Of a DNA stretch of 64,000 nt, positions 37,101 through 58,381 are shown one piece after another. Positions within the stretch are counted from its first letter, which is position 1; each line of letters begins with the position of its first letter. The DNA is taken from NCBI GenBank assembly GCA_000002435.2, contig CM018790.1. One strand, given 5' to 3'. The stretch comes from Giardia intestinalis. Its lineage: Eukaryota. The notes under the pieces are model-generated. The model saw only the letters and a list, made by a program, of their open reading frames with translations, was not told the origin of the DNA and did not search any database. The position numbers were made by a program, and so were the translations under genes.

Positions 37101-37703
37101 ATGCACTTGAGTTTCCGGGGTTTTCTTTACTTAACAGTCACACTTATTATTGCGCTTCAGATATACTTTCGATTGCTGGCTACAGACAAAGTTTTGGTCG
37201 TCCTTGGAAGTGGAGGCCACACAGCAGAAATGACTTACGTTCTCAACATGCCGGGCGTACTTGAACGTTTACAGCCTGCCCACTACCTTATTGCCAGGGG
37301 TGACGGTCATTCTAGAGCCGCTGCACTTCGACTTCCTGCCTCATCCCAGGCCAACATCCATTGTGTGACAAGGGCGCGCCGAGTACACCAGCCCTATCAC
37401 ACAGCTATTTTCACCACTCTTCTCGCCTCGTTAGAGACTGCGTGGCTACTCATTTGTCTCCGCCCACGACTTGTGCTTGCAAATGGTCCTGGGACCGCTT
37501 TCCCACCTCTTTGCCTGGCCTACCTATTTCGATCTCTGTTTGGGCTATCCGTTACTACTGTGTATATTGAATCATTCACTCGTGTCAGGCGTCTCTCTGC
37601 TACAGCGCGGTTATCTTCATGGGCGATAGACGCTCTAATCGTCAATTGGGAGCAGCTTGCAACGCAGAAGAATATGCTCCACATTCCTCTATATCATTTG
37701 TAG
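37101..37703 (+). CDS. ALG14: ALG14, the membrane-anchor subunit of UDP-GlcNAc transferase for N-glycan synthesis
   Basis: N-terminal TM anchor, then VLVVLGSGGHTAEM (the ALG14 hallmark GSGGHT.EM), ANGPGT, and ESFTRVRRLSATARL. The real ATG is at 37101; the listed 37098 is a TTG. Confidence 0.85.
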   Translation: MHLSFRGFLYLTVTLIIALQIYFRLLATDKVLVVLGSGGHTAEMTYVLNMPGVLERLQPAHYLIARGDGHSRAAALRLPASSQANIHCVTRARRVHQPYHTAIFTTLLASLETAWLLICLRPRLVLANGPGTAFPPLCLAYLFRSLFGLSVTTVYIESFTRVRRLSATARLSSWAIDALIVNWEQLATQKNMLHIPLYHL

Positions 37704-37735: not shown

Positions 37736-40700
37736 TCAGTAGAGATAGCCTGTACTGCAGTATGCCCCCTTAATGGAGACGTCAAGAGGTTGGAGGCCTG
37801 TTTTGTTTCTTAGGAACAACTGCATCCCACTGATGGTGCCCTCGATGATTACTGGAATGGACACGAAGCACGTTGCATGCTCATTTTCTTCTGCTGAGCA
37901 GTACGATGCTCCATCTATCCCTATCAGATCGTCAATCCCGTCTTCTGCGTCCAATGCATCGCCTGTCTTATTTGCATCTCCCATTTCAGTAGTTGTTCCA
38001 ACTAGGCCAGATTTATACATGTCCAGTGCTGTTTTGAGGTCGCTTCTATTCAGGCAACTGTTGTTATGCTCACAGTAATCAGTGTCTACCAAGACAGCGT
38101 AGAAAGTATATGATTGAGTATAGCCAAGAACAGACTCTGGTGTAGCGTCAGCGACGGTGTCCTCTATAGGGTCGTAAGCGATATTGAACAGTCGGAAGCC
38201 AGTTAGCTTTATCATGAATAAATCGGTGCTTGGTTTCTCACGCGCTTTCTTATCAAGTTTTTTCTTTTTGGCAACGTTAATTGAAAAGACAAGATTATTC
38301 TGGCAATCTATTTTATATTGTTGGATTGCGGTTGGTCTGCTGGCCAGTAGCACAAAGGTCTTCCGTTCTCTGTCCCTGCCTTTCCCAGTTGACTGGTGGA
38401 GGAGCATTGCCCATTTGAGAATGTTCCCTAACACGGATTGGTAGATATCTACCCTAAGCTCCCAATACATGTCGCTATATATCTTAAAGACGGGCGCACG
38501 CTCTGTGAGGGATGTTCTGAAGTAGGGAAGGGTGGTTCTCCTGGTCTGACAGTAGCCATCTGAAAGATACAAGATTGTCCTAATGCTCTTCAGCAAGTCT
38601 GCCTCTTCTTGTTGAATAGTAGTGTCTGCAAACATATTCTTATACACGGGATGGCCATCTAGGTATGTCATTACCTCCTGGGAAAGACCAATAGTAAAGA
38701 TCTCCCGGTACATTCTATTACAGAGGGAATTGTCGTATGTGATAGGCACCATATTAAAGACTTGGTATTTGAGCGCTTCAAGAGATGAAAGATCGCTAGC
38801 CGTTAGTTGCGTTAGCCGCTCTGCCTCAGCTGGGGACCTTTCCTTCTGAGAACTGTCCTTTAAAATGATGTTATGCTCATACCGCTTAATCGTCTTCAAT
38901 ATGCGCTCGATGGCCAATGCCCCCTCTTCATTGGGAAGCCTAAGGAAGGACGCTGTCTTGCTATCACAGGACACCTTTTCAATCTGCCTGGTTCTAGGTA
39001 CAATCTTCGTCAGCTCGGTGGCAGTAACTTCAAGCCTATTCTCCAGCAGTGTGGCATCATCGTTTAAGGCCTGTCTGGTAAGAACACTTGTCCCCTCGCT
39101 TGTATGCGTGTTTTGAGTTGATAGTGCAGAGCTGGTACTACCTACGCTTGACATAGACAGGGAGCTAAGGGCCTCTGATGATTCATCGCACTGTGCGTTT
39201 CTAATATCTAGAAGGATGTCCTCGATCTCACTGGTGTCAGCCTCAACTGATGCCCGTCCTAACCTAGCCCTGGCAATAGTCAATGCAAGCGATGCCTGGT
39301 CAAATTTGCCATCTAGTATGAGATGCACAGAGGACGCATCTGCAAGCCACTTACAGGGCATACCGAAGAGCATTTTAGGAACATTGTGACTGTAGTAAGT
39401 GCTTAAAAATGCCACTGTTGGGCCCGAGATTGCTGGATGCGGGCCAAAAAAGTTGCAATATATGGATAGGTGGGCTTCCCGATCTGACTGATGAATGTCC
39501 AAAGCCGGTGACACATTACCAGCTTTCTTTGCGCTGATAGAGGCTTCATCTTGGCTCCTAGCAGCAAGTATATACTCTGATATAAGCTGCGATGACAAGG
39601 AAAGCATTCCTTCAGCCTTTTTCATCCCAATAAGATGTAGCAGAGACGTTAGAAATCTTGAGTCTGAATACATACGTCCACGATCGCTTTTCAGCAGTGC
39701 ATTCTGAAGTAGTAGCGAGCAGTATAGCGCAAAACTCTTGCTATTTAGGCTGGAAAGGTCCAAATCGTGCTTTTTAAAGACGCACAGGGAGATTGTCACT
39801 AGATACACCACAGCGTCTGAAAGTGTCTTTGGGCCTTCTATATAGTAACGAGAGCCATTAGATATAGACATAAATACTCCCAACGAATAGCTGAGACTAT
39901 TGTATTGCACCTGGGGATTGCTGGCGGCCATATGGTGGGTGTCTGCTTCATTTTCTAAGAGCCTTGAGCGCTGCTCCTTACGAGATATAGCTTCCTCGGC
40001 ATAGAATTGGCCTACGTGGACGGGAATCAGCACAATCAGTAGGCTTGCTGCCCTCCATCCTTTGTTATACATCGTTATGAGCCTGTCAATTGTTTCCTTT
40101 GTGTCAATAGAAGCATCAACAATAACCGTTTTTGTTCGGAAATCATCCTCGGTCGGCCTAGACGTTATTACGCATGGAGCCAACTTGAGCTCATCGAAGA
40201 GACTACGTTCCAACCTGTCAATGACAAGGTCCAGTATGCTCATACCTTCCTCATAGAAGATAACAAGAGTGCAAGAGCCTATTCCATCGGCATAACTCCT
40301 TGACGACATCTTCCGCTCGTAGCGTGTGTCTGTAGTGAGCATAGGCTTAATGCAATGAGCGGGATCGTAGGTGTGGGAACTTTTCCCTATGGTTGCTATA
40401 TCGGGAATGTATCCACACACCATTATGATGTACCAGACTATCCCTATCACTGCTGGATACGTCAATTCAGGAATGAGGTTTTGGTTTTTACAATATGCTT
40501 CGTGTGCTTCTTTGAGGATGGTATCTCTATGTTGTATTTCGTTTCTGAAGCTACATAACCTATTGGCTGTGCCAAAAAGCTTGAAGTTTTGAGACAAATG
40601 TAACTGTGTGATTGATAAGCTAAAGACCAACGACTGGAGCACGTTATTATAGCATGGAACCTGCAAGTCAGTAGGAAGAGGGAGCTCCGCATTGCTATGG

Positions 40701-43700
40701 TATATATTCTCACACTCTTCCGTAAACAGAGGCGTGATGTAGGACTGCTCGGATACATTACCAGTCTTATCTGTGGTGGATGCATGAGCCTTCTGAGATT
40801 CCTTGAAGATGTAATGGCCAAGTATCATTTTGTATGGATCTAAGCTTGTCACTAGACTGACAAACATAAAGTTGTTGCTTGTGAAGTAGTCCAGCCACGA
40901 GAGTACTCGCTCTGAATGGGGGTAAAGTAGTGAGATGTTCCTCCATGTATAATTAGTTGCTATGGATGCCTGAAATGAAAATGGTGCTGTATCCATGAGG
41001 TCTCTGGCTCGCTGACACCGCTCGTCGTGGATGTTATAGAATGGGCTAACTCGAATAGCCTTTTCTCGCAAATCCGAGCTTAAAATGAACCTGAGAAGAA
41101 ATAGGTTATCTATGGAACATTCGCTGAGAGCACACGAAAAGATAAGGCTCATCAAGTCGCAGACAGGCATTCCCCAGGCCTTTGGAACCATTCGGTATAC
41201 TCTGGCGTTAATATAAGGAAGAAGAATATGGGATATTACGTGGGAAAGAGGTACACCCTTCCACTGAGGCGTTTCCAGTTGCTCATCTAGGTACAGGAAG
41301 AAGTGCGCAAAGAAATGATCGGTGAAGATTCGTGCTAAGGTAGGCATCACACAGCTCAGCTTCTGGCATATGATGAGAATGGAAACCATGCCCCTTGCAC
41401 AATGCTTGGCAAACTCTGCTTTAGATGCTAGTTCAGTCGCCTCATGCTCAAGCTGTAGCCGAAAGTTTGCAAGAGCAATAGATCGCTCACAGAGGCGCAT
41501 AGCCAACTCTAAGTCAAAATATGAAACGGGTGTGGTCAGAAGGAACGTCATCTCATCACAAGTATCGTGGTTCAGACAGTTTCTTCGCTGCTTGCCTAAC
41601 CTTTGACCGGAGGAGACATCGTCTTCATTCTCATCCAGCAGGTGAACGAATGTCCCTGGATTCATGATTGCCTTTTTCAGATGGGTCCCATGCTTCTCAA
41701 TGACAAACTTACTGTTGATTTCACTGCTTCTCTTCAGCAATCTCATGAGATCAGCTGTGGAAAAAAGAAGACGATGTCCCATCATTGGTCGCGTCTTCTC
41801 CAGTGGAGTGGTGAGATACAAGAGAACGTTCTGCAGGTGAGCTTCTGTAAAACTGTATGTTTGTACCACTTGTAGTTCAAGAGCACTTGGAGTCTGTAGT
41901 TCTAAATATTTTAGATATAGATTGATATTGGAATACTTTGGCTGGATCAAGATAGAAGAGTTAATCACTTCAAAGCTCATGATCCCAGAGGCCACAATTG
42001 AGCTGAACTTTGTCCCCTGAGATAGACCAATATAGTACCTGTATTCATGAAGAGGACGCACGGGGGTGATAGATATGCCGTTCAATTTAATGGGGGACTT
42101 CTTGTCTGACACACGAGATCCAACTAACTTGAAGAGCGCCATGAGAGTGCGCATGTTGAGGACGGAGATTTCGCTTTCATGGGCGTTCGTCTGATGCACG
42201 TTAATTTGAGTGATATTTTCAAAGAGCACGTTTGTAAACCCTATCGCCTTGTCTTGGGAGAAGGCCTTGGCCAGCTCCAAGTTGAATGTGGCAACGTTCT
42301 GTGCTGCATTTATCCAATAAATGATCCCGACAAGGCTTTCCAGAGTGTACCGCCCATCGTTTCCGCGGCATGCTGCTAGCTCTTCCTTGCGCTCTTCATA
42401 TTCCTGAGGAGTCGTTGTAATGAAGTGGAGCTCAGAAGCGATAGCAAGCGGAAGTGCGAGAGCCTTTTCAATGAAACACAAACGTGTCCCCAGAGAAATT
42501 GCAAGGATCAGGCTTAGTATTTCTTGTAGCACCGTAGCGTTTGCAAAGAAGATGAACCGCGTCAAGTAGCATGCTGCGCCCACATCCCATTGCGGATAGA
42601 AGGAGTCTAGACAGATCCCTAAAAAGGCAGATGGAAAGGCGGTGAGGTTAAAGGGCAGTGTACTGTTGCGGGCCATGAGTATCTCTGAATAATTCTTTCC
42701 TGGTGGAGGAGCGTTTGCCTTAAACACTTCGCTTGATTGGTGAGCCTCAGCAAACGGTACATCACAATCATCGAACATACACGTGATAGTATCTATGATG
42801 TCACGTAGATACGTATCTGTGATGACATCTAGACCCGCTTTGCTAGACCCAAACAAGGTATCTGCAAAGCCCCCAGTTCCTGCATTATGAATAATTGATA
42901 GCCTATCAAATCCAGTTGTCTTAAGATGTTGAGAAAGAGCTGTTTCAAATGCTTCATCAGAGGCGATTGCGTCCTTACGGAGTGATCCGGCATATACACG
43001 TGCTACAGCTGCAGGGCAGTCACAGGGGGCGTTGCGAAGTAACACAAGTGCACGTTTGTAATAAGGATAGAGATAGTTCTTCAGAAGTGTTAAATTATCT
43101 TTGTACGCTATGATATTTTCGCGTATCGTTGGAGAAAACATTTGGCAATAGATTCCCGTGTTTAGCAACTTGATTGTTTGCAAAAGAATATCACAAGAAT
43201 GTAGAAATGCAGTGTAGTATCTCACACGCTGCTCGTACAGTAGTTTTGAGAGCTCTGCGAACCTTTCAAAGGTCAGAAAAATCGAGTCCGGAAGAAGATT
43301 GGCGGTGACAAATAAATAGACATGCAGTGTAGCTGCTGCGACCGCCTCTGTAGTAGCTAGAATATGAATGTAGCGGACTCCTCGATACCTCTTGCCCTGT
43401 GCATCGAGGCCGGCAATGTCCTGTTTGTATCCAGCTGCTAGTGTAAAATAGTTGCGATTTAGCGAAAAGTAGCGCTGATTCTCCGAGAGTAAGAGCAGGG
43501 GAATACTACTCAAGACAGACTTCCGTACCAAAGATGTGTTAGCAATAGAGAAGCTCACTGCACGAGACATAGACGAAGAACCATGAGCAGCAGCCGTGTC
43601 TTCTGTCCCAGACTGCATTGAGATAGCACTGATGTCTGTTGCAAAGTGCCTTAGCACCGGGCTTTCCGGGAGCTTCATACCAATTGGGGTAGGCATGTCC

Positions 43701-46700
43701 GCAATAAGGAGGATGGCTAAATTGCGAGACGCTATACTAATTAGTGTACTAGTATCTATGACGACACCCAATTTGTGACGCTCGCTAGCTAAAAGGCAGA
43801 GAGTAACTAGCTCAGCTGGTGTAAATAACCGTAAAGAAATGTTTCCAGCATGGCCCAAGGACGACAAGCCATGAATGACCTTAAGAGAGTCTACGTGCTG
43901 CAGATGCGCAAGGGAACTGACCACGAAGAAGGAGTATGTTGGTTCAATCCAGACATGCTCGAGAGACGAGATGTTATAAATGGCGAAGAACTCACGCAAA
44001 TGGGCATCAAGTATATTGCTGGAGATTATGTCTGGGTTCACCCCGTTGTTGACCTTGCAAAACTGCAGGGCCTCCATGAACGTTATTGACTTTAGCGCGA
44101 GTATGGGATTGATCTGTAAGGCCAATAAGAAGACTCCTCGAAGAAGGTAGTATACCATCTGCGACTCTCCGCGACGACCTACATTGCTTATCAAGGATTT
44201 GATGAACTCATCAAATATACTGGACGGTACTTGGGAGGGGGTTAACTTTTCTGTAGAGATGCTCAGCCCCGAAGAAGAGTTTTTGGCAGCCTGTACTACA
44301 TCATCGCTCAAGTCCAGGTTTTGCTGAGTCAAGAACACGTCTACACTCAGAATAATCTTGTATGTTTTTCTATCAAGAGACTCGTCTGCTGATTGTGTCT
44401 GTGTCGTATCATCTATATCAAAAGCAGAATACTTCTCTAGTTGACGCTCTATTTCTAAGCTATCGCGGACCTTTATATCTAGGTGTTGCGCCAGCTTAGT
44501 TTTAGTGATCAATGTAGAAGATGACGACTGCGTCCGGTCCTTGCTTGCAGCGTCCTTTTTCACAGAGCCTAGGGCTGCAGCTATAGCGGCACGTGTACTG
44601 TCATCATTAACCTCCTTGGCACCTGTTGAAGCAGTGCTTTCTTTGTAAACCTGAGTGTCTAGCGTTGCCGGACCAAGGGTGTATTCCATTCCACTAGATG
44701 GAACGCGGAGAAGGAGCTTGATGAGCGCTCTACCGCCGTACAGCTTGTAGCCCCCAAACGAAGCCAGCATAAGAACAATATCTAGTAGAGAGCTGCTAAT
44801 ATCTTGCTTTCGAAGAATTGTGGTAATTATATCCAGCTGTAGCCGGGAGAAGTATTCCAGTGCACTATCTCCATGCTGCTTTCGGAACCCGTGTGGATTG
44901 CGCAGGCTTTGGAGCATCATTAAGACGCTTTTCTCACGCAGCTCTAGATCATATTGAATGGTTAGGTGCACGGTGAAAATTCTGTTGGCCAAGCCTGGTG
45001 AACACCTTGTCACTACATACTTGGTGAAGGCGTGAATATACGCCTTGAAGACTTCACTACTACTCTGTCTTAATCCTAGAGATGTCTGGGAGCTTATTTT
45101 CACGCCTCTGAAAGCTTTTAATCCGAGAAGAATCTTTAGCTTCTTCCGCATTTCTATGTAGCCCCGCATCTGCACACACAGAGATGGCACAACGCAGCTC
45201 TCCTCAAACTTTGTTAAGGACGGATCTGTTGCGGTTTTTTGTGACTGTTTTTCTGGTTTGGGGCCATCTACTCGTAAAATTGCTGGAGGCTGACGAAGGT
45301 GAGGTTTAAAGGAAGAATAGGACCCTGCCACCTCCGAAAGACTTTGATCGTTGCTTGCTTCAGATGTATCACAGGTACCATCTATGACTGTGTCACTGTC
45401 AGACGCTTCTGAGTCTTCCAGGATCTGCGAGTTTTCGCGCGCAATTCGAAGAGTTTCGGTTTCCCATGACAGCTCCATTTGTAACTTTGTTACCCCGCAG
45501 AGTTCTAATAGCTTATTAGCCTTTGCAAAAGCAGCCGTATCAGAGCTAGTAAGAATACCCCAGGGACCGATTGGACTCAGCTTGCCCATAGCGAGTGATC
45601 CACGTAGGGCATCTATAATGTTGATTATGGTTGGGGCTGTGATTTCAGAAATGAAACGAAGCGCCAAGAAGACAGAAGACGCAGTAAAAAGCCGCATTTG
45701 GATGTCCTGGACTTGATCTGTGGAGAAAATGCTGAGCCGTTTCATCTCTGCAAGCAGGCGAAGAAGGCTTACAGGTATTTGATCTTTTACGAGCAAGAGA
45801 CCGTCAATGAGTTGCTTGATCCATGTGGCAGAAAGCTCATTTAATGAAGTTATGGCTTGATCTGTGGTCAAGTTGAATCCAGGAGCTATCTTCGTAGTTT
45901 CATTAGCACTAGCTTCTTCTTGGCAATTTAATCCGGGATACACTCTAGTAAGTATGGAGGAGATGTCGAGATATCGTCTTTGGTTTAGCAAGAGATCAAT
46001 CAGGAAAGCGCGTCCAGTGTCAGGAACCACTATGTTAATTAGTTGGCTGCACTGGAGTTGCGGTGGATAAAATTCGCTCTCAAAGGTAATAGAAAGGGTT
46101 GGTGCGTCAACGGTTCCTAAGAGGGATTGGTGACTATCGCCCTCTGGAGATATTGATATATTGCCGGGAGAATTGAGAGAGAGAACACGTTCTCCCAGGA
46201 AAAGAGCGACTATATCTAGACCGGCGTGCTTTGTAAGCTCGTCGAGCACACTTTCTTGGGCCTGCTCAAACTTGCCATTGTCTAGAAAAAGAACGGTAAA
46301 GTGCATATGGAGGATCTGTCGGCCTGGAAACCTGAGTTCGTTGCCGTTGGTCAGATACAATTCACGGGCTGCATCTGCCAAAAAGATCTTATTTTCCTCA
46401 CAACTGCTGGGTAGGTAGAGCTGCATCACAGAATATTCATGGATGAGAGCATGTGCAGCTTGAATCAGCGTTGTCTTTCCAGAATAACGAGGACCGAGCA
46501 GGTGGACGGAGACACCGCCCAGAATGCAGATTGCAATGAAGAAAATAAGCTGAGAGCGAAGCATGTCAAAGTGTAGAGCAAGCTTGTGTACAGATGTCGG
46601 CTTCAGATAGTTGTCCGTCTGAGAGCTGGTCATCAAACTCTGGCCAAACTTGTAAGGAAGAAACTTTAGATAAGTGTAGTGGTTTGTCTGCTCTTTTATA

Positions 46701-49700: not shown

Positions 49701-52700
49701 CCGCTCTGGTACTTGACAATCGGAAAGCTCCCCCGAGCAAGGTATATGGTGTTGAAGCAGTCAATCAAGCGCGCATGGTGCTCTGTTGATAAAAACTCCA
49801 GGCCATGCAGGTAGACCCCGTATCCAGCCATGAAATAGGAGATAATCTGAAGAATTATAAGGTTCGCTGGGGAATAACTGGTCAGCGAGAGAAAGATGTG
49901 CCGCGTACAGAGTAATCGACTGGTGTATTGTGCTATGATCTTAGTATCTAGAAGGTTGTATCCACGCAGCTTGTCAGAGTAGATGAATATAGGCTTGCGC
50001 TGAACAAACCCCACTATTATCTTAGCAACGACGGCTAGCTGCTTATAGTTAAGCGGCAAAGAATCCAAGATAGTCGCCTTTCCCAGATAGTGTGGGCCCA
50101 GATTGACCATGGATGACCCCACAAAGAGCTTGCAATCCTGTGTAAATGTTATAGACCCTGTAGTCCTGTGAGAATCCACGGAGACCTTTTCTTCTGAATC
50201 TCTTGCTCTAGAAGCACTGGCGGCAGAGTTAACAATATTGACTGCTGCCTTTCCAAAGCCCCGTGTCGCACACCGAAGAGTGGCATCCTCTGCAGTCATC
50301 ATTACCCTTGTCGGAGGAGCAGAAGACATCTGGGATGGTTTGATGAATGCATCTGTAGTGTCGTCTCTTAGCACGGAGGAAGAAATGAACCCATAAGCAA
50401 GGCTACTTAAAATCTTATTTGTCTCCACATTAAGACTGCATCCAGCGCTCGTTAGTATGGACCGATGTATTTTTGAGTGATGGATCTGCACAAAGATCTC
50501 TCGAAGTTTGGAAATTGTTTCCATCGATAACGCCTTTGCAAAGTCCGGCTGTGAGATGGCCTCAATCCTTATACTCTTTGCCTTCTTGCGAGATCCCTTT
50601 AACGCAGCAATCTCTGCATCTGCATAGTGGTCATTATAGTATTCTATTGTTTGGTGTATAATGAGGTTTAAAAGCTGATCGTATTCGAAGACACGGGCAG
50701 CAATTGCCTTGAAGCAAAGGTATCTTTGACAGCGCCGCTGTTTGTAGTACTGTATTTTGGCAACCTTCTCTACGCTCTTTGCCAATAGCTCATCATCATT
50801 AGACATCGGCCCTGTCAACCCGAAAAGCTCTCGGCGGATGGTATTGATATAAGTCTCGGGTATTTTGTAATCTGACGAAAGCAAGGTATAGTCAACCTTT
50901 TGCTCTAAGCTGTCGTGGAGTTCTGGGCTTACCAAGTGACGCTTTAGCTGCTCGAAAATGGTAAACTTCAAAGTAAAGAAGTGGTCAACATTCCCATCCA
51001 GGTGTAGGCAAAAGACAACAGTCAGTGCATAGATTATGCTCTGGTAGAGACACTGGCAGAGAAGCTCAGAGATCCTGAGAGATATAAGAAGAAGAACCGC
51101 TCGCTTGTGTTCGCGAAGCAGACCCTCTCGATGGAGCCGCATATCATTTAGCATTCCAGAAAGAAGGAAAAGTTCTTGCGGTGCTCTGAGTCCATACTCA
51201 AAATACAGACGCTCAAAACCTGATTCTAAACCAACAATGATGATATCGGAAGGGCTAAGATGAGGAAGCGCGTGCATACTAGACTTCTTATTGAATCCTA
51301 CCTCACAGTAGCTCATATTCCTGGGGTTGCCCAGGAGTACGCGATCAAAGTTAGGGAGCACTGACTGATAGACTGCAGGGCAGTAGTATAGTGTGTTGAG
51401 ATTTTCTTGGAGAGAAAAGATGCTATAGAAGATGGAGGGAATCTTTGGAAGAAGAAGGGCACAGGCCACAGGCTTACCGTTGTAATGAGGAATCATCGGA
51501 ATAGATAACACATGCGTGTATACATTTTCTAGAATGCTACTTAAGTCATGTGTGCAGTGGGCAAGCTGTGTGAATAACTGAGGCTTGCCAGTGATCAACG
51601 CCAGAAACGATCCCGGACCAGGGTTCACACTAGATAGCTTGTTTGCTTCACGGAGGACGTTTAGGGTGTTAAAAATGGTCCGTTTGTAGTCTCCAAAATC
51701 ATTATACAAGCTAAGAAAGGACATATCTTGAACCCCGTTCCTGACAATGGTTAGTCGAGGTAGAATATATAGGAGTTCAGGGAGCAGCATAGAAACCCGA
51801 CTAATAGAGATAAGTGCGCTGCGCAAGAGAAGAAGCTGTACCTCCAGTTGGCGAGCTCTTGCCTGGACTGTATGAGGGTGCTTACGAGAAAGGATGTCAG
51901 CCACGAAAAAAAGGGCCTCCCGAATGACTTTCAGCAACCCCGAGTGTACCTGGATGAAAGGTAGCACAGTTTTGCTTGCGTGCGAGAGCATACTATTAGG
52001 TGTCATGGAGCCTGCAGTGGAGGTCGGGGCACCGGAGGTACTTGCAAGCAAATTTTCCTTTGAGCCCGAACTCCAGTGGGATATTATAATACCAGATGTT
52101 TCAGGTGTTTCTTCCGCAGTTGATAATTCGTCCACATTTAGTTTGAGAGAACTAAGACGTGAAAATGCACGGGCTTTGGGACCTTTTGGCGCATTGGAGG
52201 AAGAACTGGAGGCATTCTGCTTATTCTTATCATCAGGCTCGTTGTTGGGCTGAGCCGACAGAGCCAGACTTAGCTTGCTTCCACGACGACTGGTCCCACG
52301 AGGTGGAACAGCAGATAGCTGAATTGGTGCCGTCTGGGGCTCGTCTAAGTCCTGATTCTGTTGATCCTCTTCTAGAGTAGCCATGGAGTCGGAGTTCTGC
52401 CATTTATTAAACAGTACCCCTAGCTCATTAGACAGATTGATGTGGATAACAAGTTCGCAGGGGAAGATCTGAAGGTTCTGAAGAAAGGTATCGATTTCGG
52501 CCAGCTGCAGAAGCGTCTGTGTGCTCTTTTCCGCTCGAGTAAAGATCATTCTGGCCAAACGAAGTGCATAATCAAAATCAGAAATGTCGAGAAGTTGGGC
52601 ATTTGGAATCAACTTATCTTCTGTGAGGGGAAGCGAAAGTTCCTCAGCCAGCTGTTTGAAGTCAGCAGCCATGAGGGTAGGGGAACTAAGGCAGTGCAAG

Positions 52701-55700
52701 TAGAAAACCTTGGGGCCCAGCGTTAGTAAGTCTGCCTCAGCGGCTTGAATGGTGTCTGCCCAGAGACGAAAAGAGGGATTCTGCTTTCCTATAACGATGG
52801 CCTGAGCGGCTTCAGACAAAAGGGTCATGAAATCTTGAACGTTGGTATCTTTCAGGAGGATTGTTTGCAGATGTAAGTACCGCTGCTTTATGCTATACAG
52901 TGAAGTAATGAGTACAGATGCGGGATGAATGATGGATACAATCTCATTCGGATTGTCCGCCAAATTAAGTGTCACTCCGAGGCAGTCGGCCCAGCGGAGA
53001 GCCACTTGATGGATTTGATGCAGCACGTCGCTTATGTACAGTAGCTCATTGAAAATTTCAAATACGTTATAGAATAGATTCGGACATTCTGCTAGGGAAG
53101 TTGCGTTTTCTTCAGTATCGCATGCGGTTCTTAAATCTGCAATTTTAAGAGGTGCCGAAGATGCTGAGAGAGGGCGTGTGTCGCAAGTGCTTTCTGTTAA
53201 TGCTTGAGCCAGTTCATTAGCAGAGGAACTGGATGGTCCTCCTTCTTGATTAAAAGTTAGTTTGAATAACTCTGCATCATTTATGTCAAGAGTAGACTCG
53301 TCGCTGCTTGTAACGTTACGGATAAGCATAGCTTCGGCTGGGCGAAAGTATTGAGCCATAAATCGACGACTATGGGGGCCAGAATGCAGAGAGTCCTGGA
53401 TAGCAGCTGTGCGAATGGTTGCACGTGTCAATGGTTGTGTCATGCGGAGACGAGACCGCTCAACTGGGGAACGGAGCAGCTGAAACCCTTTAACGTAAGC
53501 CTGGATTGACTCAAGAAATTCCATAACAAGCTCATCTTCTAAAACCTCGAAGTTATCGTCGAGGAAGGATATATTCAAATCTTTTGTAAGGAAGAAAAAG
53601 GACTGCTTGAATTGGCGAGGGTAGAACCGTGCTATGAAGATGTCCCGATAGCTCATCCGCAGTACCTCCTTGCAGTATTCATGTAGCAGTACTGTTGTAT
53701 CAGAGACCCAATCACTTAACTTTAGTAGGTGCCTTGCAAATGTACGTGTGTGAGATTTTATTATGTGCCGTGCAATCTTCTGAAGACCTGTTATCTTAAA
53801 AATTTTAACTAATAGAGCGTGTACATTGAACGATCGGTGGGGAGCATTGTTGAAGTAGTCTAGTGTGACAGCAAACTCAGAATCGTTAGTAGCATCAGAG
53901 GCGGGTGCAGAAGGGTCAACCGCTGCGAAGCAAGAAAGCAGATCTGCAGACAGTGGAGGCAGAACATCGTTAGGAACATTATCTGGTGTATTAGTGCATA
54001 CTTGCTCTGTATGGGGATTACAGTCCGCTCGAATAGATTGCACATCTGTGCCTGAGCCATCTTCTAGTGTGTTATTCTGTACAGGTGCGCTGCTCTCACT
54101 ACTGTATAAAGCCGAAAAGGATCCCCATACACAAGAAGCATCGGGAGCAGGCTTAGCCACTTGAACAGAAAGAAAGTCCAAATACCCGCTTTCTAGAAGA
54201 CGCATTTCCATAAGCAGATCCACCAATACTAGACCTGTTGGTATCCACGACTTTACAAAATTGTCGTAACATTCGAGGCCATTGATCATTAAGGCAAGGT
54301 CATCCGGAGACTTGGGTTCTTTCCCCATGATAGACTCTGTCAAAACGACTATTCGAAAGAGATGCGAAGTAACCGTTCTCACTATGAGATGGGTATGATC
54401 AGCTACAGTCCTGCGAAGGGTACACATGGCCTTGATGACTGCTGCCTTGAACTGCAGGTTGTTAAATCGAATAACCTTATTCCCAATTAGCGAAGGAAGC
54501 GATATAATATGATTGAGAAGAAAATTATCTATTTTAGATGTTAGGATAGTAGCATTGTGAACGAGCTTCATTAGAACCGAGGGCTTCTGATGTAGTAATA
54601 TTTCAACATCGTTGAACGTCAATAGCCGAGGCTGCAAGGAATCGGCACTAGGATCAGTAGTACTTTCTACACCTTCTACACTATATACCACTAATGCGTC
54701 TTCCGAACTGTCTTGGATTTCAGTCTTAAGACTGACTCCTTGGGTCTTTGAAACATCTATAGCGGCAACATCATCTCTGGACAAAAATAGCAAATTATAA
54801 CCACCAATATCTAAATTAAATATAATCTGTGGTGGAAGAGATATTGGTTGCGGGGCTTCGAGGATAGGGCAGGTCTGCTGAAGAACGGTTTTATCTGCAA
54901 GCTTCCGCAACTCTTTAAGCCCAACCTCATCAATAAGAATATCACATGCTAGCCGTATGACGCCAATAAGCGAGTCGAATAGATCTCCAAAAAGTCCTTT
55001 AGTAGGCTCTGAAGCTGGAGACACAGAAATCTTATGATCACACTCCGAGCACATATCTAGAAACGGCTTGCATCCATAGATGTCATCATTAGTCAGGGCT
55101 ACCTTTTGGTAGGATTGGTTTTCGTGATCTAGTTGATATTGGAAGATTGTCTCTACCCACTCAGCAAGAAGAGCCTTTCGGCGAGCCAAGAGCCCAGCAA
55201 TTAACTGGGAGTCTGTCTTGCTAAGTCGTGTATACTCCAACATATCTGTCTCTGAAATAAGCCCAGAATATGCAGAGAAAATCTCCTTAGCCAGATCTAC
55301 ATCGTTTGTAGAACGTGGTCTTTGCTGAGAGACACTAACCATATTGGCACCATGTGCGCCTTTCCAACCTGGAGCACTTATGAACGGCGTCTTCTTGGCC
55401 TGGGCCTCTTGCTGCACTTTCGTGAGTGTGCTTGAGATAATCTTATCTAGTGGTGCACTCCTCAATGGAGCTAAAATCTGTGCCTCAAGCGCCCTATATT
55501 CTTCAAGCACCTTTGTGGAACCCACATCTGCTGATAAGAAGACCAGATCGTCCCTAGGGATAATGCCTCTTGCAACGTAGGTTTTAAAGAACTCCTTGAT
55601 AATTATGTAGAGATAGTTTGAGCTATCGAGTGCACAGAAAAATAGCTCACGGAGAGAATCGATAATTGCCTCAGGAGGCGGATTGGTGTACAATCCCGTT

Positions 55701-57955
55701 ATGTCTGTCTTACTCTGGTTGATATCTGCTACAAAATCCAGTTCAATTTGCAGTACGTTGGCAAGGGTGTCCTGCTCCTCATCAACTGGAAATAATCCTA
55801 GTGTTTCAAGGCGCTCCAGAAGTGAACTCTTGACGAGCCCATCGGGATGAGCCAAAGGTCGTTGATCGGAAACTGCTCTGCCGCTCATGACGTCCATGTA
55901 TTCGAGCATGTCTGTCTGCCACTTCAATGCTGCATCTGCGTATTCATCTGCGCAAATATTGGCTAGGATGCGCACAAAGAGCATATAGACCTTTATGATA
56001 TCCTCCGGGCATCTCAATGTGGACTGCTGTGCTTCGTTTGCTCGCATCGTTCGAACGTACTCCTCACACATGATGCAGGCAACAGAGGACAAGAGCCGCT
56101 CTACAAGGAACTTATTCAGATGTGTGTAGAACTGAGCCTTCCTGAGCTTCACTCCTCTCTTTTGTCTATTTCTAGACGATACCACTGCCTTTTTTAATCG
56201 CACAATCAGTTCTGTTTTGTAAGTGGGTAGCTGCTCTTCCTTAATCAATGAGGCAATAGCACTTGCAATCCTGGAATTAGACGATAAATCTTTAGTAGTA
56301 CATATTAGATTGTAAAGGTTAGACCCTAGAACAAAGTGTATAAAGTCCACATAGGTGGATGGTACCAAGCAGTCTGAGAATAGAACCACTAGATCCACTA
56401 CTTCTTCCCGAAGACTATCTAGGAAAGGAACGATATTATAAAACGGATGTGTCTGTAGCGAGTTAGTCTCAAGGAACTGGAATATACAAATGAGGGCATC
56501 GATCAGGGTGTGAAGGTCGGTGTCTCCGATGGATCCCAAAGACAATACAAATAGATGTATCTTTGGAAGAAGAACTGCAAGGTATTTGTTTAGAATTCTC
56601 TGGAATTGCTTTTCAAACTTGGTGGACGAAGTTAGGGCAGCGTAACAAGTTCTGAATCGTTCTCTACTATTAGATTTGTTGATTGCACGGTCATAATCAT
56701 CTTCAAGATGCTTCAGGAGTGCATCGCAATTACAGGATACTCGTTGATAGAGGTCTCCGATGTCCACAAGATTATCTTGAGCGCAGGTTGCAAACAGGCT
56801 AAGACCTGATTGTAATAAGAGCGTATCACAGACAAATGCATTCTTCGTTGTTGACATGTCCAAAGCGTTTTTCACTGCCGTCAACGAAAGAAGGTATTCC
56901 TCTGAAAGGTTCTTCAAGAGACGTTTCTTCAGTCCCACCAGATCAGAGCCATCAGGGAATCTCAGTCGCCTGAGCTCACGGTCTACGAGGTCACTTAAGC
57001 ATGTATAAGCTTTGTGGTGGAAAAGAGGATTGTACCGTGAAAAGTAAAGATCACCTATGCAAATAACCAGTGGCTTCCTTGCATGATTCTTAGCACCGCC
57101 ACTAAGGGAAGCCGATACTTCTGAAACCACATCGCTGTACTCTGTGTCAAGTATTCCCGAAGCTTCTGTGGGCTCATCGTCTGCGACATCGTATCCTGGC
57201 TGCCTTATGCCCATGTGTGACAGCTCAGTCGGTGTCAAGGCGCCCAGAAACGCCTGATTGCATCGCGGTGGAACAACCAGCTTCTGGACCAGATTCGTTT
57301 CTGCGGTCTGAAGAGTCTGGCATATGGTCTTCGCAGCAGACTCTGTTTCCTCTACAATTCTGACTGCCATGCCACTATCAGCAGCCACGGAGGATTGCAG
57401 CAAGTCACGAGGGAGCTTGGTCTCCTTCAAATAGGCAGAGTAGGCCAGCGTCCCAAGTGTCCCGACGAGGCCACCCTGTCGAAAGTGAGGCACAAGCATC
57501 AACGCGCTCGTCGGAACAGTCACAAAGAGCTCCAGCAACTCTGCATTATACGCCGACGGGACTCGAACGACGGCTTGCCTCGTTCGTGGGCTGATGGAAA
57601 GGAGATAAGCAGGCAGAATACCATGCGCGCTGTAACGATAGAGAACCGGCAGGCCACCACAGAGCCTGTCCATGTCTGCCACGAATATGGAGCACACGTG
57701 CGGAGAGGGGGCCACAGCATTGCTCTTGTCCCATTGTGTGCATGAACTATTCAATGGAATCGCTGACGAGCTCGATCTGTGCTCTCCGACTGGGCGGGCC
57801 TGCGGTGGCAACTCGACGTTAACACCTGACCCACCTGCGCTAGAAGCTGTCTTGCTCGGCGCTTTATGCAGTTCTTTATGTTCTGGCTTAATATGTTCAC
57901 TCTTCTTAAGGGATTCGCCACCCAGCATCGCTGGTACACGAAGTGGCTGGGTCAT
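37736..57955 (-). CDS. Giant hypothetical protein, 6,739 aa and 20.2 kb uninterrupted. It is largely helical, with one central Walker-A P-loop (GPRYSGKTT) and a possible Walker B.
   Basis: ATG-initiated. A 20-kb open frame cannot arise by chance at ~47% GC. The P-loop …ILGGVSVHLLGPRYSGKTTLIQAAHAL… maps to about 46469–46495 (- strand), near residue 3,820, followed by …HFTVLFLDNGKF…. No other GKT/GKS motifs were found, so it is not a dynein heavy chain or midasin (multi-AAA). No RING, WD or VWA domains were seen. Confidence 0.85.
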   Translation of the reverse strand: MTQPLRVPAMLGGESLKKSEHIKPEHKELHKAPSKTASSAGGSGVNVELPPQARPVGEHRSSSSAIPLNSSCTQWDKSNAVAPSPHVCSIFVADMDRLCGGLPVLYRYSAHGILPAYLLSISPRTRQAVVRVPSAYNAELLELFVTVPTSALMLVPHFRQGGLVGTLGTLAYSAYLKETKLPRDLLQSSVAADSGMAVRIVEETESAAKTICQTLQTAETNLVQKLVVPPRCNQAFLGALTPTELSHMGIRQPGYDVADDEPTEASGILDTEYSDVVSEVSASLSGGAKNHARKPLVICIGDLYFSRYNPLFHHKAYTCLSDLVDRELRRLRFPDGSDLVGLKKRLLKNLSEEYLLSLTAVKNALDMSTTKNAFVCDTLLLQSGLSLFATCAQDNLVDIGDLYQRVSCNCDALLKHLEDDYDRAINKSNSRERFRTCYAALTSSTKFEKQFQRILNKYLAVLLPKIHLFVLSLGSIGDTDLHTLIDALICIFQFLETNSLQTHPFYNIVPFLDSLREEVVDLVVLFSDCLVPSTYVDFIHFVLGSNLYNLICTTKDLSSNSRIASAIASLIKEEQLPTYKTELIVRLKKAVVSSRNRQKRGVKLRKAQFYTHLNKFLVERLLSSVACIMCEEYVRTMRANEAQQSTLRCPEDIIKVYMLFVRILANICADEYADAALKWQTDMLEYMDVMSGRAVSDQRPLAHPDGLVKSSLLERLETLGLFPVDEEQDTLANVLQIELDFVADINQSKTDITGLYTNPPPEAIIDSLRELFFCALDSSNYLYIIIKEFFKTYVARGIIPRDDLVFLSADVGSTKVLEEYRALEAQILAPLRSAPLDKIISSTLTKVQQEAQAKKTPFISAPGWKGAHGANMVSVSQQRPRSTNDVDLAKEIFSAYSGLISETDMLEYTRLSKTDSQLIAGLLARRKALLAEWVETIFQYQLDHENQSYQKVALTNDDIYGCKPFLDMCSECDHKISVSPASEPTKGLFGDLFDSLIGVIRLACDILIDEVGLKELRKLADKTVLQQTCPILEAPQPISLPPQIIFNLDIGGYNLLFLSRDDVAAIDVSKTQGVSLKTEIQDSSEDALVVYSVEGVESTTDPSADSLQPRLLTFNDVEILLHQKPSVLMKLVHNATILTSKIDNFLLNHIISLPSLIGNKVIRFNNLQFKAAVIKAMCTLRRTVADHTHLIVRTVTSHLFRIVVLTESIMGKEPKSPDDLALMINGLECYDNFVKSWIPTGLVLVDLLMEMRLLESGYLDFLSVQVAKPAPDASCVWGSFSALYSSESSAPVQNNTLEDGSGTDVQSIRADCNPHTEQVCTNTPDNVPNDVLPPLSADLLSCFAAVDPSAPASDATNDSEFAVTLDYFNNAPHRSFNVHALLVKIFKITGLQKIARHIIKSHTRTFARHLLKLSDWVSDTTVLLHEYCKEVLRMSYRDIFIARFYPRQFKQSFFFLTKDLNISFLDDNFEVLEDELVMEFLESIQAYVKGFQLLRSPVERSRLRMTQPLTRATIRTAAIQDSLHSGPHSRRFMAQYFRPAEAMLIRNVTSSDESTLDINDAELFKLTFNQEGGPSSSSANELAQALTESTCDTRPLSASSAPLKIADLRTACDTEENATSLAECPNLFYNVFEIFNELLYISDVLHQIHQVALRWADCLGVTLNLADNPNEIVSIIHPASVLITSLYSIKQRYLHLQTILLKDTNVQDFMTLLSEAAQAIVIGKQNPSFRLWADTIQAAEADLLTLGPKVFYLHCLSSPTLMAADFKQLAEELSLPLTEDKLIPNAQLLDISDFDYALRLARMIFTRAEKSTQTLLQLAEIDTFLQNLQIFPCELVIHINLSNELGVLFNKWQNSDSMATLEEDQQNQDLDEPQTAPIQLSAVPPRGTSRRGSKLSLALSAQPNNEPDDKNKQNASSSSSNAPKGPKARAFSRLSSLKLNVDELSTAEETPETSGIIISHWSSGSKENLLASTSGAPTSTAGSMTPNSMLSHASKTVLPFIQVHSGLLKVIREALFFVADILSRKHPHTVQARARQLEVQLLLLRSALISISRVSMLLPELLYILPRLTIVRNGVQDMSFLSLYNDFGDYKRTIFNTLNVLREANKLSSVNPGPGSFLALITGKPQLFTQLAHCTHDLSSILENVYTHVLSIPMIPHYNGKPVACALLLPKIPSIFYSIFSLQENLNTLYYCPAVYQSVLPNFDRVLLGNPRNMSYCEVGFNKKSSMHALPHLSPSDIIIVGLESGFERLYFEYGLRAPQELFLLSGMLNDMRLHREGLLREHKRAVLLLISLRISELLCQCLYQSIIYALTVVFCLHLDGNVDHFFTLKFTIFEQLKRHLVSPELHDSLEQKVDYTLLSSDYKIPETYINTIRRELFGLTGPMSNDDELLAKSVEKVAKIQYYKQRRCQRYLCFKAIAARVFEYDQLLNLIIHQTIEYYNDHYADAEIAALKGSRKKAKSIRIEAISQPDFAKALSMETISKLREIFVQIHHSKIHRSILTSAGCSLNVETNKILSSLAYGFISSSVLRDDTTDAFIKPSQMSSAPPTRVMMTAEDATLRCATRGFGKAAVNIVNSAASASRARDSEEKVSVDSHRTTGSITFTQDCKLFVGSSMVNLGPHYLGKATILDSLPLNYKQLAVVAKIIVGFVQRKPIFIYSDKLRGYNLLDTKIIAQYTSRLLCTRHIFLSLTSYSPANLIILQIISYFMAGYGVYLHGLEFLSTEHHARLIDCFNTIYLARGSFPIVKYQSGGSVPGELALNDFSTCMFTGYIVIILPELIYHEDGSISLSTTGRNMNSLFNQAKIEAFLDSFGSSLATSATKLNTLLTGALCNLSVSLPTGSRQPPGTRLTNERGDLPEGKPRCKIMAQLYGAILTDFLGIVHFDPTLVRTTFKCLPNAEVLMPIPSNHVLYHLFKKKGEAHAESFYEISLLLNAMQSACPKLYPDDIDIIYKRARDTTNTFSVAITTALLLIGQVYSLSIRDFLIKVVAFAFRLTSAQVSHIHKIVASLNKLLNLSTEEPVLKKALARDIPASRSHVYDTSADHSTAQKQDKQHDSEQEDNQLTNVQAEADTFKINYTRSPTASLSQNIWACIKQTLSSQYVQFCEAASEQVNIIGPLGTDLLLVCLEFLQLGPCALFSNNQSVQVLECYATILSKFGRLQPFFVHSINDLHHHSDTIRRLGSSALVVLLINDTTGNLGPSLYGALLAFMNPVPHLSMTNGVELDCELSAMFNASHTGDSLVSKYGRPKVLVITTGSFLEDKMLATPMGLIPHRIVIDSSVMRTEALIKLLVLNSFKLSSATANHMLDYIHEKMTQCTIDNIENLDTAKEYFRKMCTPPCTDEASALQMGLRRLRFISSLFYILVLHYFDQATAVFSMAPDLRGWRILRSTFYYYLVCCKVCVFKPPDVRSFTAEQLAERLVATNQQLTRKPQHQSSITTQSKPPALQSPSSKGLGGISSRRGDAGTVASCNTNRTARLTNLINPSLSSLSTRHDLTIIPRTPSMKSPTTQTDPSKTPKGTNMDLMNSLKPEAELQFSAHTTINLSHVWCAEHIGSFSSALAMFGERRFTFFDISLSDEFLIEYVYRAESYEQACFNLLCPVFAAVWTSVSLAYVQYIRGKVHRLSKLWMKYLSFHSKHTIPLLLSRFSNDKLLQKSLEVCLTHIEETLPPEYPYEQHKYAYLAVVTEKGSYMQYTSANRAHGNMPNKRSTNPILKSAKHKRDGNASAGAVVPPLTTGPLAKQSSRTSSAIKEQTNHYTYLKFLPYKFGQSLMTSSQTDNYLKPTSVHKLALHFDMLRSQLIFFIAICILGGVSVHLLGPRYSGKTTLIQAAHALIHEYSVMQLYLPSSCEENKIFLADAARELYLTNGNELRFPGRQILHMHFTVLFLDNGKFEQAQESVLDELTKHAGLDIVALFLGERVLSLNSPGNISISPEGDSHQSLLGTVDAPTLSITFESEFYPPQLQCSQLINIVVPDTGRAFLIDLLLNQRRYLDISSILTRVYPGLNCQEEASANETTKIAPGFNLTTDQAITSLNELSATWIKQLIDGLLLVKDQIPVSLLRLLAEMKRLSIFSTDQVQDIQMRLFTASSVFLALRFISEITAPTIINIIDALRGSLAMGKLSPIGPWGILTSSDTAAFAKANKLLELCGVTKLQMELSWETETLRIARENSQILEDSEASDSDTVIDGTCDTSEASNDQSLSEVAGSYSSFKPHLRQPPAILRVDGPKPEKQSQKTATDPSLTKFEESCVVPSLCVQMRGYIEMRKKLKILLGLKAFRGVKISSQTSLGLRQSSSEVFKAYIHAFTKYVVTRCSPGLANRIFTVHLTIQYDLELREKSVLMMLQSLRNPHGFRKQHGDSALEYFSRLQLDIITTILRKQDISSSLLDIVLMLASFGGYKLYGGRALIKLLLRVPSSGMEYTLGPATLDTQVYKESTASTGAKEVNDDSTRAAIAAALGSVKKDAASKDRTQSSSSTLITKTKLAQHLDIKVRDSLEIERQLEKYSAFDIDDTTQTQSADESLDRKTYKIILSVDVFLTQQNLDLSDDVVQAAKNSSSGLSISTEKLTPSQVPSSIFDEFIKSLISNVGRRGESQMVYYLLRGVFLLALQINPILALKSITFMEALQFCKVNNGVNPDIISSNILDAHLREFFAIYNISSLEHVWIEPTYSFFVVSSLAHLQHVDSLKVIHGLSSLGHAGNISLRLFTPAELVTLCLLASERHKLGVVIDTSTLISIASRNLAILLIADMPTPIGMKLPESPVLRHFATDISAISMQSGTEDTAAAHGSSSMSRAVSFSIANTSLVRKSVLSSIPLLLLSENQRYFSLNRNYFTLAAGYKQDIAGLDAQGKRYRGVRYIHILATTEAVAAATLHVYLFVTANLLPDSIFLTFERFAELSKLLYEQRVRYYTAFLHSCDILLQTIKLLNTGIYCQMFSPTIRENIIAYKDNLTLLKNYLYPYYKRALVLLRNAPCDCPAAVARVYAGSLRKDAIASDEAFETALSQHLKTTGFDRLSIIHNAGTGGFADTLFGSSKAGLDVITDTYLRDIIDTITCMFDDCDVPFAEAHQSSEVFKANAPPPGKNYSEILMARNSTLPFNLTAFPSAFLGICLDSFYPQWDVGAACYLTRFIFFANATVLQEILSLILAISLGTRLCFIEKALALPLAIASELHFITTTPQEYEERKEELAACRGNDGRYTLESLVGIIYWINAAQNVATFNLELAKAFSQDKAIGFTNVLFENITQINVHQTNAHESEISVLNMRTLMALFKLVGSRVSDKKSPIKLNGISITPVRPLHEYRYYIGLSQGTKFSSIVASGIMSFEVINSSILIQPKYSNINLYLKYLELQTPSALELQVVQTYSFTEAHLQNVLLYLTTPLEKTRPMMGHRLLFSTADLMRLLKRSSEINSKFVIEKHGTHLKKAIMNPGTFVHLLDENEDDVSSGQRLGKQRRNCLNHDTCDEMTFLLTTPVSYFDLELAMRLCERSIALANFRLQLEHEATELASKAEFAKHCARGMVSILIICQKLSCVMPTLARIFTDHFFAHFFLYLDEQLETPQWKGVPLSHVISHILLPYINARVYRMVPKAWGMPVCDLMSLIFSCALSECSIDNLFLLRFILSSDLREKAIRVSPFYNIHDERCQRARDLMDTAPFSFQASIATNYTWRNISLLYPHSERVLSWLDYFTSNNFMFVSLVTSLDPYKMILGHYIFKESQKAHASTTDKTGNVSEQSYITPLFTEECENIYHSNAELPLPTDLQVPCYNNVLQSLVFSLSITQLHLSQNFKLFGTANRLCSFRNEIQHRDTILKEAHEAYCKNQNLIPELTYPAVIGIVWYIIMVCGYIPDIATIGKSSHTYDPAHCIKPMLTTDTRYERKMSSRSYADGIGSCTLVIFYEEGMSILDLVIDRLERSLFDELKLAPCVITSRPTEDDFRTKTVIVDASIDTKETIDRLITMYNKGWRAASLLIVLIPVHVGQFYAEEAISRKEQRSRLLENEADTHHMAASNPQVQYNSLSYSLGVFMSISNGSRYYIEGPKTLSDAVVYLVTISLCVFKKHDLDLSSLNSKSFALYCSLLLQNALLKSDRGRMYSDSRFLTSLLHLIGMKKAEGMLSLSSQLISEYILAARSQDEASISAKKAGNVSPALDIHQSDREAHLSIYCNFFGPHPAISGPTVAFLSTYYSHNVPKMLFGMPCKWLADASSVHLILDGKFDQASLALTIARARLGRASVEADTSEIEDILLDIRNAQCDESSEALSSLSMSSVGSTSSALSTQNTHTSEGTSVLTRQALNDDATLLENRLEVTATELTKIVPRTRQIEKVSCDSKTASFLRLPNEEGALAIERILKTIKRYEHNIILKDSSQKERSPAEAERLTQLTASDLSSLEALKYQVFNMVPITYDNSLCNRMYREIFTIGLSQEVMTYLDGHPVYKNMFADTTIQQEEADLLKSIRTILYLSDGYCQTRRTTLPYFRTSLTERAPVFKIYSDMYWELRVDIYQSVLGNILKWAMLLHQSTGKGRDRERKTFVLLASRPTAIQQYKIDCQNNLVFSINVAKKKKLDKKAREKPSTDLFMIKLTGFRLFNIAYDPIEDTVADATPESVLGYTQSYTFYAVLVDTDYCEHNNSCLNRSDLKTALDMYKSGLVGTTTEMGDANKTGDALDAEDGIDDLIGIDGASYCSAEENEHATCFVSIPVIIEGTISGMQLFLRNKTGLQPLDVSIKGAYCSTGYLY

Positions 57956-58381
57956 TCTATTTTAACTCTGCCTTGAGGATGCCCAGGTATCAGAAAGACC
58001 GCCTTCAGAACGCAGCCACAAGGCAGCAGGGCCTCCATGGCGGCATTCCTGGGCTCTCTGGCTGTCTGTCCAAATCCATCCTTTTTGAAATCGGTTGATC
58101 GGGCACCCCACATGAATCTCAGAGACCTGCCACCTCAGCATAACGAAGGACAGAGGGGTCTTGGAAGTCTCATGCATTCAGCGCAGTAACAGAGTTGCGA
58201 AAACAGAACTTCATTCTCAGCACAATGCCACGGGCAGCACTTACATGCTCTGCGCACCGTGGCGTTCCAAAGCACTCAATGGGTTCTGTAACTATTAAAC
58301 TAATCCTTTTATGCACCTTATGATATTCGTAAGTATCTTTAGTATTTTTGAAAAATCAATTCGGCAGGAAATCAATTCCAG

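Follow-up and report, generated by a model that had tools for sequence, protein, structure and literature searches.

What kind of protein is encoded by a single open reading frame (ORF) of 6,739 codons that carries one recognisable nucleotide-binding site? The question is raised by GL50803_15485, located in a stretch of 64,000 nucleotides (nt) of Giardia intestinalis DNA (GenBank assembly GCA_000002435.2, contig CM018790.1), hereafter referred to as the window. After comparison with its orthologues, profile searches and structure prediction, we consider it probable that GL50803_15485 encodes an extremely diverged and catalytically dead tandem-AAA+ protein of the dynein-heavy-chain type, confined to the Giardia/diplomonad lineage and retaining one nucleotide pocket. 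The P-loops at the positions of AAA1 and AAA2 are lost, and one P-loop is conserved.

GL50803_15485 is a real gene. The ORF (37736..57955, minus strand; 6,739 codons plus stop) starts with ATG and contains no internal stop codon, and because an in-frame TAA is located 9 nt 5' of this ATG, the start codon is fixed and no start further 5' is possible. The convergent Alg14 gene ends at 37703, leaving a gap of 32 nt, and the divergent ABC-transporter gene starts at 58382, leaving a gap of 426 nt. By exact look-up, the product was identified as GL50803_15485 of G. intestinalis WB (GL50803_0015485, XP_001706225.1, UniProt A8BM14); in public records both this protein and GMRT_14745 of Giardia muris are named 'hypothetical protein'. 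Other G. intestinalis isolates carry identical products of 6739 amino acids (aa), and the gene is transcribed in trophozoites, being listed at a log count per million (logCPM) of 8.06 in a supplement table of RNA sequencing (RNA-seq) data (PMC8866875). An earlier note on this DNA, made from the letters alone, had described an uninterrupted ATG-initiated frame of 6,739 aa with the same two flanking gaps and had called it clearly a real gene, in good agreement with the gene coordinates, the orthologues, the identical isolate copies and the RNA-seq data. Two proteomics supplements gave no entry for GL50803_15485, and a literature search with the gene identifiers found no mention of it in main texts. 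Neither internal repeats, after self-BLAST of the protein, nor tandem DNA repeats were found. This may be the longest ORF of the Giardia genome.

The family to which the protein belongs is small. An exhaustive phmmer search with aa 3700-4899 as the query against 1.84e9 (1.84 billion) representative proteins returned, at a reporting level of expectation value (E) <= 1e-3, four matches only, that is, proteins of 6,408 aa, 5,911 aa and 7,203 aa together with a 59-aa fragment; at this level neither dynein, midasin nor any other known protein was present. The 6,408-aa protein is G. muris GMRT_14745, which is 43% identical to GL50803_15485, and the 5,911-aa and 7,203-aa orthologues, 26-28% identical, were found in read-archive (Logan) assemblies without public annotation. 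GL50803_15485 and its three long relatives are collinear end to end, and this full-length alignment indicates that the family is real, under purifying selection over its whole length, and phylogenetically narrow. The ORFs of the two distant orthologues are uninterrupted under the standard code. Hexamitinae read TAA/TAG as Gln, and the uninterrupted frames therefore argue against a Hexamitinae origin; the two may represent unsequenced Giardia-related or other fornicate lineages.

The evidence for a dynein-type fold comes from the region upstream of the P-loop. The AlphaFold2 model of aa 2580-3400, made from the four-sequence alignment and of moderate overall confidence (mean predicted local distance difference test score, pLDDT, 51.8), contains two beta-alpha-beta domains with the AAA+ strand order and a helical bundle. 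After Foldseek comparison of this model with 350,542 PDB chains, 110 matches were obtained at E <= 1e-3, and the best 50 were without exception dynein heavy-chain motor domains (E 2.8e-6 to 6.4e-5, probability 0.97-1.0, 710-930 aligned columns), including cytoplasmic dynein-1, dynein-2 and axonemal dyneins (bovine sperm, Leishmania). As modelled, the P-loop is preceded, at a distance of 550-1,200 residues, by two AAA+ modules without Walker A, whose closest structural matches are dynein motors. The features of the gene, in the order of translation, are the following.

57956..57975, minus strand: region just upstream of the ATG, an AT-rich GTTAAAATAGA abutting the start codon, read directly from the sequence; from what is known of Giardia promoters it would be the promoter/initiator.
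50048..57955, minus strand: N-terminal 2,636 aa (aa 1-2636), collinear and conserved in the orthologues, with no domain detected; its position would correspond to that of tail and linker in a dynein-like chain.
50072..50098, minus strand: pseudo-P-loop GPHYLGKAT, aa 2620-2628 (relaxed-motif match, ortholog alignment, model).
49571..50047, minus strand: first AAA+-type alpha/beta domain, AAA1-like, aa 2637-2795, predicted in the AlphaFold2 model.
49955..49993, minus strand: strand plus loop at the Walker A position of the AAA1-like domain, PIFIYSDKLRGYN, aa 2655-2667 (model, alignment).
49787..49825, minus strand: strand at the Walker B position of the AAA1-like domain, GYGVYLHGLEFLS, aa 2711-2723 (alignment, model).
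48911..49231, minus strand: helical bundle, aa 2909-3015, the best-predicted part of the model (pLDDT 79-89).
48119..48697, minus strand: second AAA+-type alpha/beta domain, AAA2-like, aa 3087-3279, without Walker A (model pLDDT 68-90).
45956..46558, minus strand: third nucleotide-binding-type module, about aa 3800-4000, holding the sole P-loop and scoring best by hhalign on dynein AAA3.
46469..46495, minus strand: Walker A GPRYSGKTT, aa 3821-3829 (pattern search, ortholog alignment).
46274..46297, minus strand: Walker-B-like TVLFLDNG, aa 3887-3894, 58 residues after Walker A (sequence, ortholog alignment).
41948..42538, minus strand: further alpha/beta domain, AAA-like by topology, aa 5140-5336 (AlphaFold model, local pLDDT 50-82).
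37739..41947, minus strand: C-terminal segment of about 1,400 aa (aa 5337-6739), conserved in the orthologues.

The predicted AAA1-like domain runs in the order helix, strand PIFIYS, loop, helix, strand, helix, strand GVYLHG, helix and strand. In the region of PIFIYSDKLRGYN, the GK[ST] signature of Walker A is absent from all four orthologues, and the catalytic AAA1 site of dynein (Walker A GPAGTGKT plus Walker B DE) is not present in any of them. At the Walker B position, G, V, Y, G and E of GYGVYLHGLEFLS are invariant in the four proteins (G132, V135, Y136, G139 and E141 of the alignment), whereas the Asp of the canonical hhhhDE is missing, so that Glu is the only invariant residue of the Walker-B catalytic pair. 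The helical bundle, placed between the two alpha/beta domains, occupies the position of the AAA small (lid) domain. A register on AAA1 proposed by eye ('EYLG...PLTDRCY' / 'GAWGCFDEFNR') was not significant (hhalign E 0.25 versus 0.56 for the reversed control); the same register was reproduced by hhalign restricted to AAA1 and is consistent with the secondary structure of the model, and unrestricted hhalign picked a register shifted by one beta-alpha unit. Further downstream, the model of aa 4600-5700 is poor (mean pLDDT 38.7); its first 17 Foldseek matches are all dynein motors, but at E >= 1.4e-3, and it may be taken as weak corroboration of the dynein reading. Altogether at least four alpha/beta modules are discerned (aa 2637-2795, 3087-3279, about 3800-4000 and 5140-5336), with low-complexity insertions at about aa 3401-3500 and 3701-3800.

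The second line of evidence is the P-loop module itself. The strict Walker A pattern, [AG]xxxxGK[ST], occurs exactly once in GL50803_15485, in GPRYSGKTT, and is kept in all four orthologues (GPRYSGKTT, GPRYSGKTT, GPPCSGKST and GLPFTGKTT). The earlier note had likewise reported a single NTP-binding motif near aa 3,820, followed by a Walker-B-like hhhhDNG segment, and both are as it described. The D-N pair of TVLFLDNG is shared by the two named Giardia species only, in both of which Asn stands at the position of the catalytic Walker-B Glu, and Walker B is not conserved in the two distant orthologues. For alignment at the profile level, dynein profiles were built from real cytoplasmic dynein fragments (15 cytoplasmic dyneins in the AAA1-AAA4 profile). 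The family profile of aa 2580-4400 matched the AAA1-AAA4 profile by hhalign with E 5.4e-5, against 0.17 for the reversed query, 0.68 for an N-terminal tile and 0.4 for a C-terminal tile, and the sole confidently aligned stretch places ...VHLLGPRYSGKTTLIQAAHALIHEYSVMQLYLPSSCEE on dynein AAA3. When the P-loop tile was compared with each excised dynein module, the ranking was as follows.

AAA3: hhalign probability 92%, E 6.9e-7, the signal being 47 columns around the P-loop.
AAA2: hhalign probability 83%, E 8.9e-6.
AAA4: hhalign probability 52%, E 1.5e-4.
AAA1: hhalign probability 10%, E 3.3e-3.

Since the best score falls on AAA3 and the P-loop module is the third alpha/beta module in order along the protein, we assign it with moderate confidence to the AAA3 position. 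The relaxed match GPHYLGKAT was rejected as a second P-loop; the orthologues carry GHYLGKAT, GHYIGMPC and GEYTGKAT at this site, and in the model it precedes the first helix of the first AAA+ domain instead of lying between a strand and a helix.

A degenerate dynein-like heavy chain of this kind would work as follows. An N-terminal region of about 2,600 residues would be followed by a stretch of about 2,700 residues that holds at least four AAA+-like modules and is broken by low-complexity insertions; this layout, with a long N-terminal region, AAA modules towards the C-terminus and disordered insertions, fits both dyneins and non-motile dyneins. AAA1 is the motor ATPase of every motile dynein. 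As the module at the AAA1 position lacks Walker A in every orthologue, no canonical AAA1-driven powerstroke would be expected, and the protein would be non-motile. The only canonical Walker A is kept in the third, AAA3-like module, and because Walker A is conserved there and the Walker-B Glu is replaced by Asn or unconserved, this pocket would bind nucleotide without hydrolysing it. Judging from these motifs, the retained pocket probably binds nucleotide as a structural or regulatory cofactor without turnover. The bound nucleotide would stiffen a catalytically dead ring, in the same way as ATP in AAA2 of dynein and RNF213, provided that the AAA modules close into a ring, as we infer. The protein would then serve as a static scaffold or regulator, most plausibly at microtubule or axoneme structures or in partnership with a bona fide dynein heavy chain, as has been proposed for DNAHX and DNHD1; a location at microtubules or axonemes is guessed from the analogy with these proteins.

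More tentatively, it is possible that diplomonads have independently evolved a 'pseudo-dynein', that is, a chain of 6-7 thousand residues which has lost the motor ATPase, the stalk and all recognisable motifs, keeps an AAA3-type glue pocket, and either forms a static part of a lineage-specific microtubule structure, or regulates it, or serves as an inhibitory partner of true dyneins while the eight flagella of Giardia are assembled.

Several searches for dynein features in the sequence came out negative. On GL50803_15485 and two orthologues, the Pfam dynein models (DHC_N1/N2, AAA_6-9, MT, Dynein_heavy_C and others) gave no match at E<=1. The tiles of aa 1-2680 gave no hhalign signal with the dynein linker profile, and no signal of tail homology was obtained. 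Likewise, no sequence signal was detected by hhalign or profile searches for the stalk, the microtubule-binding domain, AAA5, AAA6 or the C-terminal domain, the hhalign comparison with the dynein stalk region being no better than the reversed control. By-eye matches to the stalk base, to H1 of the microtubule-binding domain and to AAA5 were dropped for the same reason. A crude heptad scorer, which recovered CC1, CC2 and the buttress (63-85 aa, scores 1.5-1.78) in all four real dyneins examined, revealed no comparable coiled coil at a position common to the family members, and the model of this region is unreliable. A canonical stalk is thus probably missing or unrecognisable, and a short or aberrant stalk is compatible with so crude a method. 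The earlier note had named fold comparison and coiled-coil prediction as ways to check its reading; the former led to dynein motors for aa 2580-3400 and, less firmly, for aa 4600-5700, and the latter yielded no canonical dynein-like stalk shared by the family.

Alternatively, the protein could be a giant with tandem AAA+ modules which belongs to the dynein/midasin/MoxR clade but does not descend from a dynein heavy chain. It would then either have been invented independently in this lineage or be related to midasin or RNF213, with the C-terminal effector (MIDAS or E3) lost. Sequence searches outside the dynein models are equally silent: Pfam on three overlapping tiles of GL50803_15485 gave nothing except AAA_14 at the P-loop (E = 0.13), Pfam on the motor regions of two orthologues matched no family, phmmer against all PDB sequences with both halves of the protein and the P-loop tile found nothing, and the family profiles A1, A4 and A3 searched against PDB returned a spurious tektin match and generic P-loop matches only. 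Nevertheless, we consider such an origin unlikely, for in Foldseek the AAA modules resemble the dynein motor domain ahead of other AAA+ families. RNF213 chains are absent from the best structural matches, and with neither a RING/E3 module nor, in particular, a C-terminal RING E3 found in the protein, the RNF213 reading was rejected or at least down-weighted. As for midasin, Pfam detected no VWA domain, there is no strongly acidic block, and the AAA modules begin only at about aa 2637.

A still-active mechano-enzyme, in which a dynein-like motor or remodeller would use the surviving AAA3-type site as its catalytic site, is less probable still. Walker A is intact and kept by all four orthologues, from which selection for nucleotide binding follows, and Asp is present in Walker B of Giardia (LFLDNG). 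In contrast, the Asn at the catalytic-Glu position in both named Giardia species, the unconserved Walker B of the two distant orthologues, the loss of the AAA1 site, on which all known dynein motility depends, and the failure to detect a canonical stalk coiled coil all speak against catalysis, and we give this alternative little credence.

The least probable is a lone AAA+/STAND-like NTPase inside a helical-repeat scaffold, representing a new class of giant, for which a single Walker A, the failure of every sequence method to assign a family and the confinement of the family to four sequences among 1.84e9 representatives could be cited, but which is contradicted by the modelled upstream AAA+ folds and their dynein matches. 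This was the reading of the earlier note, and its single P-loop stands, as does the lack of RING, WD, VWA, BEACH or kinase signatures, confirmed by Pfam on the three tiles; midasin, which it had excluded, was likewise rejected or down-weighted here (no VWA, no acidic block, one P-loop). Its exclusion of dynein, its view of the P-loop module as the sole AAA module and its placement of the protein in an unknown class are contradicted by two upstream AAA+ folds with dynein as the best structural match, which favour instead its own alternative of a very divergent homolog of a known giant. The STAND (NACHT / NB-ARC) assignment was rejected or down-weighted in addition, as the combination of a single module, winged-helix or helical extensions and a repeat sensor was not found.

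The gene lies in a neighbourhood of intronless and tightly packed genes, including a variant-specific surface protein (VSP) gene and many genes for ankyrin-repeat proteins. The side observations made in the window are given below.

15-1163, plus strand: ORF cut by the window start, of the variant-specific surface protein family (Pfam VSP, E 4e-70).
About 1164-8334: about 7 kilobases without an ORF >= 220 aa, inside an otherwise tightly packed genome; the G+C content is 0.39 at 2001-4000 and 0.56-0.59 at 4001-8000, and the only inverted repeat found is a weak one of 43 nt (4305-4347 / 7118-7160).
7711-7785, minus strand: tRNA-Asp (GTC), within the ORF-poor region, the sole RNA gene of the window by Rfam and ARAGORN.
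8335-9888, minus strand: GTG-initiated ORF of 517 aa, matching the C-terminal half only of an Upf1-like helicase (AAA_11 profile positions 195-254 plus AAA_12), and separated by only about 180 nt from its neighbour; possibly a helicase gene that has been truncated or frameshifted.
17815-22530, minus strand: protein of 1,571 aa with a Peptidase_M14 domain mid-protein; it may be of the cytosolic-carboxypeptidase (tubulin deglutamylase) type and, if so, relevant to the flagellate cytoskeleton.
22596-26261, minus strand: ATG-initiated ORF of 1,221 aa without Pfam match, adjoining the M14 peptidase gene.
34139-36982, plus strand: protein of 947 aa with at least nine ankyrin-repeat stretches and a C3HC4 RING finger; it lies two genes past the stop codon of GL50803_15485, and the RING finger is encoded by this separate gene and not by that of the giant.

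The placement of GL50803_15485 among dynein-type AAA+ proteins gives a testable functional hypothesis for a protein that public records call hypothetical. If true, it shows to what extent the motor of a dynein can degenerate while selection still maintains one nucleotide pocket.

Compared with canonical dynein heavy chains, GL50803_15485 differs in that no Pfam dynein model detects similarity in its sequence, in that Walker A is missing from AAA1, AAA2 and apparently AAA4, and in its length, which exceeds the typical one by about 2,000 residues and includes many low-complexity insertions. Neither stalk coiled coils nor a microtubule-binding domain, a linker or tail motifs can be recognised in it. 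An 'orphan diplomonad dynein' has been described outside the 17 dynein classes, with a tail unalignable to the known classes, in a set assembled by motor-domain sequence similarity (Kollmar 2016; PMC5100056). As GL50803_15485 lacks such similarity, the orphan may be another gene, though the two may also be the same.

Midasin (Rea1/Mdn1) is built differently: its ring lies close to the N-terminus, several of its P-loops are intact, and it has a D/E-rich region as well as a MIDAS (VWA) domain at the C-terminus. None of these features is seen in GL50803_15485. RNF213 is closer in several respects. In its six-unit dynein-like AAA core, two of the six AAA units are visible by sequence and AAA1 carries neither Walker A nor Walker B; a non-hydrolysed ATP in AAA2 serves as 'molecular glue' between neighbouring units, and the core is preceded by a long N-terminal arm (PMC7311170). 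The giant resembles it in an AAA core mostly invisible to sequence analysis, a degenerate AAA1 and a long N-terminal part, and, as with RNF213, a count of Walker A motifs is misleading and the comparison has to be made at the level of the fold. It differs from RNF213 in that the latter has a compact AAA ring of about 1,600 residues, followed by a RING-containing E3, and two competent sites (AAA3 and AAA4).

The closest functional analogy is offered by DNHD1 and DNAHX. In both of these dynein heavy chains the AAA1 site is degenerate and the motor carries multiple insertions, and a role as non-motile scaffold or regulator has been proposed for them. DNAHX, which branched off from the outer-arm alpha heavy chain, is animal-specific and reported to be absent from protists, and in the same study the non-motile dynein derivatives are considered to have arisen after animal multicellularity (bioRxiv 10.1101/2025.01.18.633724). 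GL50803_15485 shares with this type the degenerate AAA1, the motor insertions and, as predicted, the dynein-type fold, the type being a functional category and not a clade. DNAHX is recognisable by sequence and keeps a stalk with insertions, whereas the giant is far more diverged, restricted to a diplomonad lineage and left with one P-loop; orthology is unlikely, and any relation would be convergent. If the degenerate dynein-like reading is true, a protist example is added to this newly recognised category, and if the 'pseudo-dynein' proposal also holds, non-motile dyneins would have had a second, protist origin, in parallel to animal DNAHX and DNHD1.

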